Shown here one piece after another: positions 3,960-34,245 of a stretch of DNA of 39,592 nt (the stretch's first letter is position 1; each line of letters begins with the position of its first letter). Source of the DNA: Escherichia phage vB_EcoP_LNA7; sequence record OM630586.1, one strand, 5' to 3'. A program made the position numbers and the translations under genes. A model generated the notes under the pieces. It was given only the letters and a program-made list of their open reading frames with translations. It had not been told where the DNA came from and made no database searches.

Positions 3960-4883
3960 ATGGCTGAATCTAATGCAGACGTATATGCATCTTTTGGCGT
4001 GAACTCCGCTGTGATGTCTGGTGGTTCCGTTGAGGAACATGAGCAGAACATGCTGGCTCTTGATGTTGCTGCCCGTGATGGCGATGATGCAATCGAGTTA
4101 GCGTCCGACGAAGTGGAAACAGAACGTGACCTGTACGACAACTCTGACCCATTCGGTCAAGAGGATGACGAAGGTCGCATTCAGGTTCGTATTGGTGATG
4201 GCTCTGAGCCTACCGATGTGGATACTGGCGAAGAAGGCTTTGAGGGCACCGAAGGCTCCGAAGAGTTTACCCCACTGGGTGAGACTCCAGAAGAACTGGT
4301 AGCTGCCTCTGAGCAACTTGGTGAGCACGAAGAGGGCTTCCAAGAGATGATTAACATTGCTGCCGAGCGTGGCATGAGCGTCGAGACCATTGAGGCTATC
4401 CAGCGTGAGTACGAGGAGAACGAGGAGTTGTCCGCTGAATCCTACGCTAAGCTGGCTGAAATTGGCTACACTAAGGCTTTCATTGACTCGTATATCCGTG
4501 GTCAAGAAGCTCTGGTGGAGCAGTACGTAAACAGTGTCATTGAGTACGCTGGTGGTCGTGAGCGTTTTGACGCACTCTATAATCACCTTGAGACGCACAA
4601 CCCTGAGGCTGCACAGTCGCTGGACAATGCGTTGACCAATCGTGACTTAGCGACCGTTAAGGCTATCATCAACTTGGCTGGTGAGTCTCGCGCTAAGGCG
4701 TTCGGTCGTAAGCCCACTCGTAGTGTGACTAATCGTGCTATTCCTGCTAAACCTCAGGCTACCAAGCGTGAAGGCTTTGCGGACCGTAGCGAGATGATTA
4801 AAGCTATGAGCGACCCTCGGTATCGCACAGATGCCAACTATCGTCGTCAAGTCGAACAGAAAGTAATCGATTCGAACTTCTGA
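3960..4883 (+). CDS. 9: gene 9 capsid scaffolding protein (acidic)
   Basis: ORF track 307 aa, same length as T7 gp9; SD aaggagac. Confidence 0.95.
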   Translation: MAESNADVYASFGVNSAVMSGGSVEEHEQNMLALDVAARDGDDAIELASDEVETERDLYDNSDPFGQEDDEGRIQVRIGDGSEPTDVDTGEEGFEGTEGSEEFTPLGETPEELVAASEQLGEHEEGFQEMINIAAERGMSVETIEAIQREYEENEELSAESYAKLAEIGYTKAFIDSYIRGQEALVEQYVNSVIEYAGGRERFDALYNHLETHNPEAAQSLDNALTNRDLATVKAIINLAGESRAKAFGRKPTRSVTNRAIPAKPQATKREGFADRSEMIKAMSDPRYRTDANYRRQVEQKVIDSNF

Positions 4884-4896
4884 TAGACTCTGAAAT

Positions 4897-4919
4897 TAAT
4901 ACGACTCACTATAGGGAGA
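4897..4919 (+). promoter_or_regulatory. Phage RNAP class III promoter phi10, followed by the gggagaccacaacggtttccc leader hairpin and strong SD aagaaggaga
   Basis: taatacgactcactatagggaga then the leader familiar from pET vectors. Confidence 0.95.
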
Positions 4920-4981
4920 CCACAACGGTTTCCCTCTAGAAATCATTCTTTGTTTAACTTTCTTAAGAAGGAGACATACAT

Positions 4982-6019
4982 ATGGCTAACATGACTGGTG
5001 GACAGCAAATGGGTACTAACCAAGGTAAAGGCGTAAGTACTGGTTCTGCCGATAAACTGGCGTTGTTCTTGAAGGTATTTGGCGGTGAAGTCCTGACTGC
5101 GTTCGCTCGTACCTCCGTGACCACTTCTCGCCACATGGTCCGCTCCATCTCCAGCGGCAAATCTGCTCAGTTCCCTGTTCTGGGTCGCACTCAGGCAGCA
5201 TATCTGGCTCCGGGTGAGAACCTCGACGATAAACGTAAGGACATCAAACACACCGAGAAGGTAATCACCATTGATGGTCTCCTGACGTCTGACGTTCTGA
5301 TTTACGATATTGAGGACGCGATGAACCACTACGACGTTCGCTCTGAGTATACCTCTCAGTTGGGTGAATCTCTGGCGATGGCTGCGGATGGTGCGGTTCT
5401 GGCAGAGATTGCTGGTCTGTGTAACTTGGAAAGCCAATATGATGAGAACATTGCAGGTCTGGGCACTGCCACTGTGATTGAGACCACTCAGAACAAGGCT
5501 GCCCTTACCGACCAAGTTGCTCTGGGTAAAGAGATCATTGCGGCTCTGACCAAAGCTCGTGCGGCTCTGACCAAGAACTATGTTCCTGCTGCTGACCGCG
5601 TGTTCTACTGTGACCCAGATAGCTACTCTGCGATTCTGGCAGCACTGATGCCTAACGCGGCAAACTACGCTGCTCTGATTGACCCTGAGAAGGGTTCTAT
5701 CCGTAACGTTATGGGCTTTGAGGTTGTAGAAGTTCCTCACCTCACCGCTGGTGGTGCTGGCACCTCTCGTTCTGATGCTACCGGTCAGAAGCACGCCTTC
5801 CCTGCCACTAAGAGTGGTAATGACAAGGTTGCTAAAGACAACGTTATCGGCCTGTTCATGCACCGCTCTGCGGTAGGTACTGTTAAACTGCGTGACTTGG
5901 CTCTGGAGCGCGCTCGCCGTGCTAACTTCCAAGCGGACCAGATTATCGCTAAGTACGCAATGGGCCATGGTGGTCTGCGCCCAGAAGCTGCTGGTGCAGT
6001 GGTTTTCATGGCGGGGTAA
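4982..6019 (+). CDS. 10A: gene 10A major capsid protein
   Basis: ORF track 345 aa, MANMTGGQQMG...; T7 gp10A is 345 aa. Confidence 0.95.
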   Translation: MANMTGGQQMGTNQGKGVSTGSADKLALFLKVFGGEVLTAFARTSVTTSRHMVRSISSGKSAQFPVLGRTQAAYLAPGENLDDKRKDIKHTEKVITIDGLLTSDVLIYDIEDAMNHYDVRSEYTSQLGESLAMAADGAVLAEIAGLCNLESQYDENIAGLGTATVIETTQNKAALTDQVALGKEIIAALTKARAALTKNYVPAADRVFYCDPDSYSAILAALMPNAANYAALIDPEKGSIRNVMGFEVVEVPHLTAGGAGTSRSDATGQKHAFPATKSGNDKVAKDNVIGLFMHRSAVGTVKLRDLALERARRANFQADQIIAKYAMGHGGLRPEAAGAVVFMAG

Positions 6020-6177
6020 CGCTAGAGGTGGCCTCAACGGTCGCTGCTAGTCCCGAAGAGGTGAGTGTTACTTCAACCGAAGAAACCTTAACGCCAGCAC
6101 AGAAGGCTGCACGCACTCGCGCTGCTAACAAAGCCCGAAAGGAAGCTGAGTTGGCTGCTGCCACTGCTGAGCAATAA
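4982..6177 (+). CDS. 10B: gene 10B minor capsid protein made by programmed -1 frameshift near 6001..6007
   Basis: -1 frame is open from ggttttc (6001..6007) to TAA 6175..6177 and encodes ...VASTVAASPEEVSVTSTEETLTPAQKAARTRAANKARKEAELAAATAEQ, as recalled for T7 10B. Confidence 0.8.
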
Positions 6178-6186
6178 CTAGCATAA

Positions 6187-6224
6187 CCCCTTGGGGCCTC
6201 TAAACGGGTCTTGAGGGGTTTTTT
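6187..6224 (+). terminator. Tphi, late terminator for phage RNAP
   Basis: ccccttggggcctctaaacgggtcttgagggg hairpin followed by tttttt. Confidence 0.95.
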
Positions 6225-6245
6225 GCTTAAAGGAGGAGGAACTAT

Positions 6246-10339: not shown

Positions 10340-12583
10340 ATGAGTAAAATTGAATCTGCCCTTCAAGCGGCACAACCGGGACTCTCTCGGTTACGTAGTG
10401 GCGCTGGTGGTATGGGCTATCGTGCAGCAACCACTCAGGCTGAGCAACCAAGGTCAAGCCTATTGGACACCATTGGTCGGTTCGCTAAGGCTGGTGCCGA
10501 TATGTATACCGCTAAGGAGCAACGAGCACGCGACCTAGCTGACGAACGCTCTAACGAGATTATCCGTAAGCTGACTCCTGAGCAGCGCCGAGAAGCTCTC
10601 AACAACGGGACCCTTCTGTATCAGGATGACCCATACGCTATGGAAGCACTGCGAGTCAAGACTGGTCGTAACGCTGCGTACCTTGTGGACGATGATGTTA
10701 TGCAGAAGGTCAAAGAGGGTGTCTTCCGTACCCGTGAAGAGATGGAAGAGTATCGCCATAGTCGTCTTCAAGAGGGCGCTAAGGCATACGCTGAGCAGTT
10801 TGGTATTGACCCTGAGGACGTTGATTATCAGCGCGGTTTCAACGGGGACATCACTGAGCGTAACATCTCACTGTATGGCGCACACGATAACTTCTTGAGC
10901 CAGCAAGCTCAGAAGGGTGCCATCATGAACAGTCGAGTGGAACTCAACGGTGTCCTTCAAGACCCTGATATGCTGCGCCGCCCAGACTCTGCTGACTTCT
11001 TTGAGAAGTACATCGACAATGGTCTGGTTACTGGGGCAATCCCCTCTGATGCTCAAGCCACTCAGCTTATAAGTCAAGCGTTCAGTGATGCTTCTAGCCG
11101 TGCTGGTGGTGCTGACTTCCTGATGAGAGTCGGTGACAAGAAGGTAACACTTAACGGGGCCACTACGACTTACCGAGAGTTAATGGGTGAAGAACAGTGG
11201 AATGCTCTCATGGTCACAGCACAACGTTCTCAGTTTGAGAATGACGCTAAGCTGAACGAGCAGTATCGCTTGAAGATTAACTCTGCGCTGAACCAAGAGG
11301 ACCCTCGTACTGCGTGGGAGATGCTTCAAGGTGTCAAGGCTGAACTCGATAAGATTCAACCTGATGAGCAGATGACACCGCAACGTGAGTGGCTAATCTC
11401 AGCACAGGAGCAAGTGCAGAATCAGATGAACGCATGGACGAAAGCACAGGCCAAGGCTCTGGATGACTCAATGAAGTCTATGAACAAACTTGACGTAATC
11501 GACAAGCAGTTCCAGAAGCGAATCAACGGTGAGTGGGTCTCAACGGACTTCAAGGACATGCCAACAAACGAGAACACTGGTGAGTTCAAACATAGCGATA
11601 TGGTTAACTACGCCAATAAGAAACTCGCTGAGATTGACAGTATGGATATTCCAGATGCTACCAAGGACGCCATGAAGTTGAAGTATCTTCAAGCGGACTC
11701 TAAGGACGGTGCATTCCGTACAGCAATCGGGACCATGGTAACAGACGCTGGTCAAGAGTGGTCTGCCGCTGTGATTAACGGTAAGTTACCGGACAATACC
11801 CCAGCTTTGGATGCTCTACGCAGAATCCGCAATGCTGACCCTCAGTTGATTGCCGCTCTGTATCCTGACCAAGCTGAGTTATTCCTGACGATGGACATGA
11901 TGGACAAGCAGGGCATTGACCCTCAGGTTATTCTTGACGCTGACCGACTGACTGTCAAGCGATCCAAAGAGCAACGCTTTGAGGACGATAAAGCATTTGA
12001 GTCTGCATTAAATGCGTCTAAGGCTCCTGAGATTGCCCGTATGCCAGCGTCACTGCGAGAATCTGCACGTAAGATTTATGACTCCGTTAAGTATCGCTCA
12101 GGGAACGAAAGCATGGCTATGGAGCAGATGACCAAGTTCCTTAAGGAATCTACCTACACGTTCACTGGTGACGATGTTGATGGTGATACCGTTGGTGTAA
12201 TTCCGAAGAACATGATGCAAGTCAACTCTGACCCGAAATCGTGGGAGCAAGGTCGTGATATTCTGGAGGAAGCACGTAAGGGAATCATTGCGAGCAACCC
12301 TTGGATAACCAACAAGCAACTGACCATGTATTCTCAAGGTGACTCCATTTACCTCATGGACACCACTGGTCAAGTCCGAGTCCGATACGACAAAGAGCTA
12401 CTCTCGAAGGTCTGGAGTGAGAACCAGAAGAAACTCGAAGAGAAAGCTCGTGAGAAGGCTCTGGCTGATGCGAACAAGCGAGCACCTATAGTTGCAGCAA
12501 CGAAAGCCCGTGAAGCTGCTGCTAAACGAGTAAGAGAGAAACGTAAACAGACTCCGAAGTTCATCTATGGACGTAAGGAGTAA
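10340..12583 (+). CDS. 15: gene 15 internal core protein
   Basis: ORF track 747 aa, same as T7 gp15. Confidence 0.95.
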   Translation: MSKIESALQAAQPGLSRLRSGAGGMGYRAATTQAEQPRSSLLDTIGRFAKAGADMYTAKEQRARDLADERSNEIIRKLTPEQRREALNNGTLLYQDDPYAMEALRVKTGRNAAYLVDDDVMQKVKEGVFRTREEMEEYRHSRLQEGAKAYAEQFGIDPEDVDYQRGFNGDITERNISLYGAHDNFLSQQAQKGAIMNSRVELNGVLQDPDMLRRPDSADFFEKYIDNGLVTGAIPSDAQATQLISQAFSDASSRAGGADFLMRVGDKKVTLNGATTTYRELMGEEQWNALMVTAQRSQFENDAKLNEQYRLKINSALNQEDPRTAWEMLQGVKAELDKIQPDEQMTPQREWLISAQEQVQNQMNAWTKAQAKALDDSMKSMNKLDVIDKQFQKRINGEWVSTDFKDMPTNENTGEFKHSDMVNYANKKLAEIDSMDIPDATKDAMKLKYLQADSKDGAFRTAIGTMVTDAGQEWSAAVINGKLPDNTPALDALRRIRNADPQLIAALYPDQAELFLTMDMMDKQGIDPQVILDADRLTVKRSKEQRFEDDKAFESALNASKAPEIARMPASLRESARKIYDSVKYRSGNESMAMEQMTKFLKESTYTFTGDDVDGDTVGVIPKNMMQVNSDPKSWEQGRDILEEARKGIIASNPWITNKQLTMYSQGDSIYLMDTTGQVRVRYDKELLSKVWSENQKKLEEKAREKALADANKRAPIVAATKAREAAAKRVREKRKQTPKFIYGRKE

Positions 12584-22285: not shown

Positions 22286-22446
22286 TCTCACAGTGTACGG
22301 ACCCAAAGTTCCCCCCATAGGGGCCCCTAAAGCCCAGCCAATCACCTAAAGTTACCTTTCAGTTGACCTTGAGGGGTCCCTAAGGGTTGGGGTTGACCCT
22401 TTGAGTGTCTCCTTGGGTGTTACCTTGAGTGTCTCTCTGTGTCCCT
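22286..22446. repeat. Terminal repeat (direct terminal redundancy), present once because the permuted assembly collapses the two ends; physical genome ends predicted near 22286 and 22446
   Basis: Starts tctcacagtgtacgg (canonical T7 left-end sequence) and ends ...ctctctgtgtccct; boundaries placed by recall of the T7 repeat. Confidence 0.7.
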
Positions 22447-32015: not shown

Positions 32016-32470
32016 TGGCACGAGTACAATTTAAACAACGTGAATCTACTGATGCAATCTTTGTCCACTGCTCGGCTACAAAGCCAAGTCAGAATGTAGG
32101 GGTTCGCGAGATTCGCCAGTGGCATAAAGAGCAAGGTTGGCTTGATGTCGGGTATCACTTTATCATCAAGCGCGATGGTACTGTAGAGGAAGGCCGAGAT
32201 GAGATGGCTGTAGGCTCTCACGCTAAAGGCTATAATCATAACTCTATTGGTGTATGCCTTGTGGGTGGTATTGACGATAAAGGTAAGTTCAAGGCTAACT
32301 TTACGCCAGCCCAAATGCAATCCCTCCGCTCACTGCTTGTCACACTGCTGGCTAAGTACGAAGGCGCTGTGCTTCGCGCACATCACGATGTGGCTCCTAA
32401 GGCTTGCCCATCGTTCGACCTTAAGCGTTGGTGGGAGAAGAACGAACTGGTCACTTCTGACCGTGGATAA
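32015..32470 (+). CDS. 3.5: gene 3.5 lysozyme (N-acetylmuramoyl-L-alanine amidase) and inhibitor of phage RNAP
   Basis: ORF track 151 aa, MARVQFKQRESTDAIFVHCSATKPSQNVGVREIRQWHKEQGWLDVGYHFII... Confidence 0.95.
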   Translation: MARVQFKQRESTDAIFVHCSATKPSQNVGVREIRQWHKEQGWLDVGYHFIIKRDGTVEEGRDEMAVGSHAKGYNHNSIGVCLVGGIDDKGKFKANFTPAQMQSLRSLLVTLLAKYEGAVLRAHHDVAPKACPSFDLKRWWEKNELVTSDRG

Positions 32471-32471
32471 T

Positions 32472-32494
32472 TAATTGAACTCACTAAAGGGAGA
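32472..32494 (+). promoter_or_regulatory. Phage RNAP class II promoter phi3.8, followed by the gggagaccacaacggtttccc hairpin
   Basis: taattgaactcactaaagggaga. Confidence 0.85.
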
Positions 32495-32526
32495 CCACAA
32501 CGGTTTCCCTTTGTTCGCATTGTTGA

Positions 32527-34245
<1,719 letters not shown>

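Follow-up and report, generated by a model that had tools for sequence, protein, structure and literature searches.

The window analysed here is a stretch of 39,592 nt from Escherichia phage vB_EcoP_LNA7 (sequence record OM630586.1) and is a complete, circularly permuted Teseptimavirus genome in which the right end of T7 maps near 22446. The best public records, T7, 13a and others included, are only about 92-94% identical to the whole genome over some 93% coverage, so the phage probably belongs to a species absent from the collection searched. The + strand carries sixteen T7-type promoters, arranged as in T7, with +1 positions at 551, 3875, 4914, 9289, 16581, 21800, 22689, 27917, 27995, 28482, 29623, 29740, 30810, 32489, 33648 and 35269. 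An Rfam scan of the whole window returned no family at threshold. The locus of interest is the expression signal of the major capsid gene, whose features are the following:

3960..4883, + strand: gene 9, capsid assembly/scaffolding protein, the upstream neighbour (ORF; Pfam Phage_T7_Capsid, E 6.6e-76).
4897..4919, + strand: phi10 class III T7-type promoter (-17 to +6), with the +1 G at 4914; 23/23 match to TAATACGACTCACTATAGGGAGA, aligning with the annotated phi10 of T7 and 13a.
4914..4934, + strand: 5'-terminal hairpin of the gene 10 mRNA, with an 8-bp stem and a 5-nt loop, from folding; identical to T7 and pET.
4935..4953, + strand: TCTAGA and then an A/U-rich tract, from alignments, with the g10RBS anatomy taken from PMC8748333.
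4954..4964, + strand: enhancer (epsilon/Enh) homologue TTAACTTTC, with 8/9 of the T7 sequence TTAACTTTA, from alignment, Enh being defined as in PMC8748333.
4968..4973, + strand: Shine-Dalgarno (SD) sequence AAGGAG, with an 8-nt spacer to the ATG, from sequence and alignment.
4982..5014, + strand: codons 1-11, MANMTGGQQMG, the homologue of the T7-tag, from ORF translation and comparison with T7 and pET.
4982..6019, + strand: gene 10A, major capsid protein, 345 aa (ORF; Pfam Gp10A-like, E 6.8e-115).
6185..6220, + strand: Tphi terminator hairpin at the end of the gene 10 transcript, from a terminator scan; identical to T7 Tphi by alignment.

The -17 to -1 part of the phi10 promoter is TAATACGACTCACTATA (4897-4913), and the site at 4897-4919 is one of five in the window that match the class III consensus at all 23 positions. 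The gene 10 leader spans 68 nt (4914-4981), reads GGGAGACCACAACGGTTTCCCTCTAGAAATCATTCTTTGTTTAACTTTCTTAAGAAGGAGACATACAT and ends at the ATG at 4982. Over 4880-5060 the sequence agrees fully with that given in the initial annotation. Its first 21 nt, GGGAGACCACAACGGTTTCCC, fold with a predicted energy of -12.2 kcal/mol (z = -4.85), and none of 200 shuffled sequences was equally stable. The start of the gene 10 transcript carries the hairpin GGGAGACCACAACGGUUUCCC, identical to the T7-type hairpin at 21 of 21 positions. The published anatomy of the g10RBS consists of an XbaI site, an 11-nt A/U tract, a 9-nt Enh, a 4-nt standby site, the SD and a spacer (PMC8748333). The enhancer in the leader of the window phage reads TTAACTTT(C); when the 9-nt enhancer UUAACUUUA is set against TTAACTTTC at 4954-4962, 8 of 9 contiguous bases agree, and the last base and the spacing to the SD are altered by a 3-nt insertion. 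AAGGAG stands about 8 nt before the ATG of a T7-type major capsid gene, which in turn follows gene 9.

The C-terminus of gp10A is AVVFMAG* (window 5995-6177) as against AVVFKVE* in T7; the slippery GGTTTTC is retained and the frame of the 10B extension is open to 6177. Just 3' of Tphi (6185-6240), the ribosome-binding region of gene 11 differs from that of T7 by 3 additional nt and a single substitution (TTAAAGGAGGAGG vs TGAAAGGAGG).

The initial annotation had reported that the 5' stem-loop recurs after promoter phi3.8, at 32488..32508. The recurrence is real and the position is off by one: GGGAGACCACAACGGTTTCCC has two exact matches in the window, at 4914-4934 and 32489-32509, with none expected (100 shuffles). 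The promoter was also named correctly, being homologous to T7 phi3.8 and called phi3.8 in the annotation of 13a as well. The features of this second region are:

32472..32488, + strand: phi3.8-type class II promoter TAATTGAACTCACTAAA (-17 to -1), with +1 at 32489; identical to the annotated phi3.8 of T7 and 13a.
32489..32509, + strand: second exact copy of the 21-nt hairpin; the T7 copy differs by one loop base (ACAGC).
32468..32529, + strand: composite hairpin with an upper stem, an asymmetric internal loop and a lower stem, predicted for read-through transcripts; homologue of the T7 R3.8 RNase III region.
32542..34245, + strand: gene 4 primase/helicase, directly downstream (ORF; Pfam Helic-prim_T7_N, Toprim, DnaB_C).

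The composite hairpin has a predicted energy of -22.1 kcal/mol (z = -4.37), and the corresponding T7 fold has the same shape. Between the end of gene 3.5 and a point 13 nt beyond the hairpin, the aligned T7 and window sequences differ at only two positions, of which one is in the loop. In T7, the R3.8 RNase cleavage site follows closely downstream of the phi3.8 start (PMC6938266). This placement and the composite fold suggest that the phi3.8 copy of the hairpin doubles as the top of an R3.8-type processing hairpin, and by sequence and predicted folding the region is homologous to that of R3.8, the RNase III processing site of T7; cleavage there is known for T7 only (PMC6938266). Alignment to T7 shows that gene 3.8 (11225-11590 in T7) is missing here (window 32510-32541), which leaves the phi3.8-type promoter 53 nt before the ATG of gene 4; it should therefore feed gene 4 directly. 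Such a junction lacking gene 3.8 is common, and 44 records cover at least 80% of it. Phages 13a and HZP2 differ from the window phage in carrying a different, longer gene 3.8 after phi3.8, which suggests that the gene 3.8 slot is a variable insertion point.

Comparison of the gene 10 leader was made with T7 (V01146) and with the vector pET3xa-barn36 (NC_025174), which have the same leader sequence throughout, from the promoter up to and including the ATG. The window phage has in common with both the promoter, the 21-nt 5' hairpin, TCTAGA, 8 of 9 enhancer bases, AAGGAG, the 8-nt spacer and the ATG context, in the same order of elements as described for the g10RBS (PMC8748333). Its leader measures 68 nt, as against 63 nt in T7. 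The A/U tract holds an A->C change at 4944 and two extra nt at 4947-4948; three extra nt within 4960-4964 turn TTAACTTTA into TTAACTTTC and place the enhancer 3 nt further from the SD; and a T->C change is found at 4975, just 3' of GGAGA. The reported departure from the pET leader therefore amounts to two substitutions and five inserted nt, and over the 79 nt from 4914 to 4992 the phage and the vector differ at eight nucleotide positions.

The capsid start was read from the ORF at 4982-6019 as MANMTGGQQMG rather than MASMTGGQQMG, in agreement with the initial annotation. Ten of the 11 residues of the T7-tag, which is likewise capsid-N-terminal in origin, are common to the capsid N-terminus of the window phage, but Asn replaces Ser at position 3 and the exact 11-residue tag sequence is absent. 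The replacement (Ser3Asn) results from a G->A change at 4989, which turns codon 3 from AGC into AAC and abolishes the NheI site. No mapping of antibody contact residues or of the epitope was found in the T7-tag literature. Position 10 (codon 5009-5011) is polymorphic as well: Met is found in the window phage, T7, 13a, C2 and JacobBurckhardt, and all other relatives examined have Leu, as do other genera. Directly after the conserved N-terminal 17 residues lies a hypervariable patch (5030-5050) with codon indels among relatives, which reads GVSTGSADK in the window phage and GVVAAGDK in the translation of T7 DNA.

The distribution of these alleles was surveyed in 14 relatives from a phage collection (T7 included), in IMG/VR loci, which are mostly the same genomes, and in BLAST identity tables. 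The 79 nt at 4914-4992 are found at 100% identity in seven records from five phages, namely 13a, 64795_ec1, Salmonella phage C2, PDP351P2 and CQ615, whose whole genomes are only about 92-94% identical to that of the window phage. In 13a (EU734174 / NC_011045) phi10 is annotated at the same place, and both 13a and C2 encode MANMTGGQQMG. Identity is 98.7% in phiA1122, other Yersinia phages, N30, C5, HZ2R8 and JacobBurckhardt, and 89.9% in T7 records. The reverse search with the T7 leader found 98 records at least 99% identical; among the matches listed, a spread sample of the ranking, all records at 98.7% or above are named T7, and the best isolate other than T7 is NC-A at 94.9%. The allele table of relatives distributes the distinguishing characters of the T7 form as follows:

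T after GGAGA (SD+2): T7 only.
Ser3: T7 only.
3-nt deletion: T7, 3A_8767, NC-A and IME390.
2-nt deletion: T7 and MeretOppenheim.

A search pattern for IMG/VR that allowed A or G in codon 3 matched 14 loci, with G in the T7 genome only. Because the pattern itself makes the first 26 nt of these matches identical, they are informative solely as to whether codon 3 has A or G. The two IMG/VR scans returned mostly the same reference genomes, together with three metagenome contigs with unrelated leaders. As a source of environmental allele frequencies the scans were rejected; they served for the polarity of codon 3 only. Despite unrelated leaders, MANMTGGQQLG is encoded by Yersinia phage AP10 and one related metagenome contig, as well as by two metagenome contigs whose nearest matches are Serratia phage Pila and BA14. 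As Asn3 is thus present in other genera too, it is, on this distribution, the ancestral residue across genera, and T7/pET is the outlier. Judged from the same alleles, the 68-nt leader with Asn3 is the commonest wild form, and the T7/pET form (63 nt, T after GGAGA, Ser3) is derived and private to its lineage. The proposal of natural variation in the enhancer leader holds to the extent that the window phage differs from pET and T7, but its polarity is to be reversed, since it is T7/pET that carries the unusual allele. The feature itself is well known: public genomes already contain it, and the window phage has the natural form that is met most often. It offers no new element or mechanism. What it shows, a point of small practical value, is that the pET leader and T7-tag in their canonical form represent an allele private to laboratory T7 and not the family consensus.

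The position of the segment in a Teseptimavirus genome, with gene 9 upstream and a Gp10A-like capsid gene and Tphi downstream, indicates that it is very probably native, the late (class III) signal from which a wild Teseptimavirus expresses its major capsid gene. The allele differences are most likely near-neutral. By analogy with T7, the phage RNA polymerase would initiate at G4914 from the consensus phi10 promoter, and the first 21 nt of the transcript would form a stable 5' hairpin, thought to shield the mRNA from decay that depends on the 5' end. The U/A-rich tract with Enh/epsilon and the strong AAGGAG 8 nt before the ATG would recruit ribosomes and sustain very high capsid synthesis, the enhancer acting probably via ribosomal protein S1 and not by pairing with 16S rRNA, and Tphi would terminate the gene 10 transcript.

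An origin of the segment from a pET-type vector, by contamination or chimeric assembly, draws on the 52-nt run at 4892-4943 that is identical to pET3xa and on a Tphi hairpin that is that of T7. The pET terminator hairpin is presumably identical to Tphi. Alignment with the vector sequence, which the initial annotation had proposed as a check, shows that leader and tag are not those of the vector: the eight differing positions in 79 nt, the placement of the segment in a complete syntenic phage genome, where gene 9 and an entire gene 10 flank it, and the occurrence of the identical allele in five independently isolated phages all speak against such an origin, whose probability is close to nil. 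The sequence differences and the genomic context already refute contamination and uphold the natural, non-vector origin that had been claimed. The suggested use of the changes as markers of contamination stands in part, as they distinguish phage DNA from pET, but it is limited by the 52-nt run identical to the vector. Because this run and the Tphi hairpin match the vector or T7 exactly, screening tools that rely on short matches will flag a natural genome; the loss of the NheI site with Asn3 and the two leader indels are the markers of wild phage DNA. A second alternative accepts the phage origin and regards the 68-nt leader as a distinct regulatory variant, in which the CTT insertion, together with C4975, would let the enhancer region pair with the SD (UGUUU..CUUUC/GAAGGAGACA) and so damp or time capsid translation, the T7 allele being a de-repressed derivative with higher expression. 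In the minimum-energy fold of the window allele the enhancer region does pair with the SD, which lies within a 10-bp bulged hairpin; the mean unpaired probability of the SD is 0.14 as against 0.28 in T7, and single T7-type changes each lower the predicted opening energy (5.51 and 4.56 kcal/mol). However, the local hairpin reaches only -3.8 kcal/mol, and the real alleles have equal predicted opening energies for the region from the SD to +13 (6.35 kcal/mol in the window and 6.44 kcal/mol in T7). Among relatives, JeanTinguely has a T->G change at window position 4959 (TTAACGTTC), which affects the 5' arm of the hairpin and is not compensated, the CTT is missing in several wild phages, and no covariation backs the pairing. 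A regulatory variant of this kind is unlikely, and the hairpin sequestering the SD was rejected as the functional difference on grounds of its weakness, the equal opening energies and the lack of covariation in relatives.

A near-neutral effect of the leader differences is favoured by the equal opening energies, by the uncompensated breaks of the pairing in relatives, and by the published finding that g10RBS expression falls by only about 12% when the A/U tract and the 4-nt standby region are removed (PMC8748333). The folding predictions point to no functional effect of the changes. The 5' hairpin is predicted to be identical in every allele by transcript folding. With C at 4975, one potential pairing with the 3' end of 16S rRNA is lost and the weak SD hairpin becomes possible. 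The 3-nt insertion, which affects the ninth base of the enhancer and the SD spacing, and this C leave room for a modest quantitative effect of the wild leader on expression. It is unlikely that the wild 68-nt leader, with its enhancer shifted by 3 nt and weak enhancer-SD pairing, drives translation or mRNA stability that differs measurably, at least 2-fold, from that of the atypical, derived pET leader. Were this so, wild Teseptimavirus leaders would offer a naturally tuned collection of g10-type ribosome binding sites that is still untapped.

The identity of the two hairpins within the window (21/21), and the location of the phi3.8 copy in an RNase III site region in T7, could be taken to mean that the copies are kept identical by gene conversion or by one shared trans-acting partner (for example, at regulatory sites for RNase III or RNA polymerase). 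Variation among relatives argues the opposite: N30 has a loop G at phi10 only and T7 has one at phi3.8 only, while changes are confined to phi10 in MeretOppenheim, HZ2R8 and HZP2. The phi10 hairpin, when folded with its upstream context, gains only 3 further base pairs past a 1-nt bulge and has no lower stem, and the T7 annotation places no RNase III site at phi10. Maintenance of identity by either means is very unlikely. Across seven phages the phi3.8 copy varies in T7 only, the phi10 copies vary independently, and no sign of gene conversion between the copies was seen; concerted evolution was rejected on account of the independent variation in N30, T7, MeretOppenheim, HZ2R8 and HZP2. As far as these comparisons reach, the second copy after the phi3.8-type promoter is ancestral sequence that has been kept independently.

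The variants of the 8-bp stem-loop among relatives comprise only three loop changes, one change of G-C to G-U and one disruptive change, G14A in HZP2. The latter breaks the closing C-G pair of the HZP2 phi10 hairpin, which also has a loop change and no compensating change, and the phi3.8 copy of that phage is the consensus. Among the transcripts of the 16 promoters of the window, only those of phi10 and phi3.8 begin with a strong 5' hairpin (-13.4 kcal/mol for the first 24 nt), and the transcript from 16581, presumably that of phi17, has a moderate one (-7.0).
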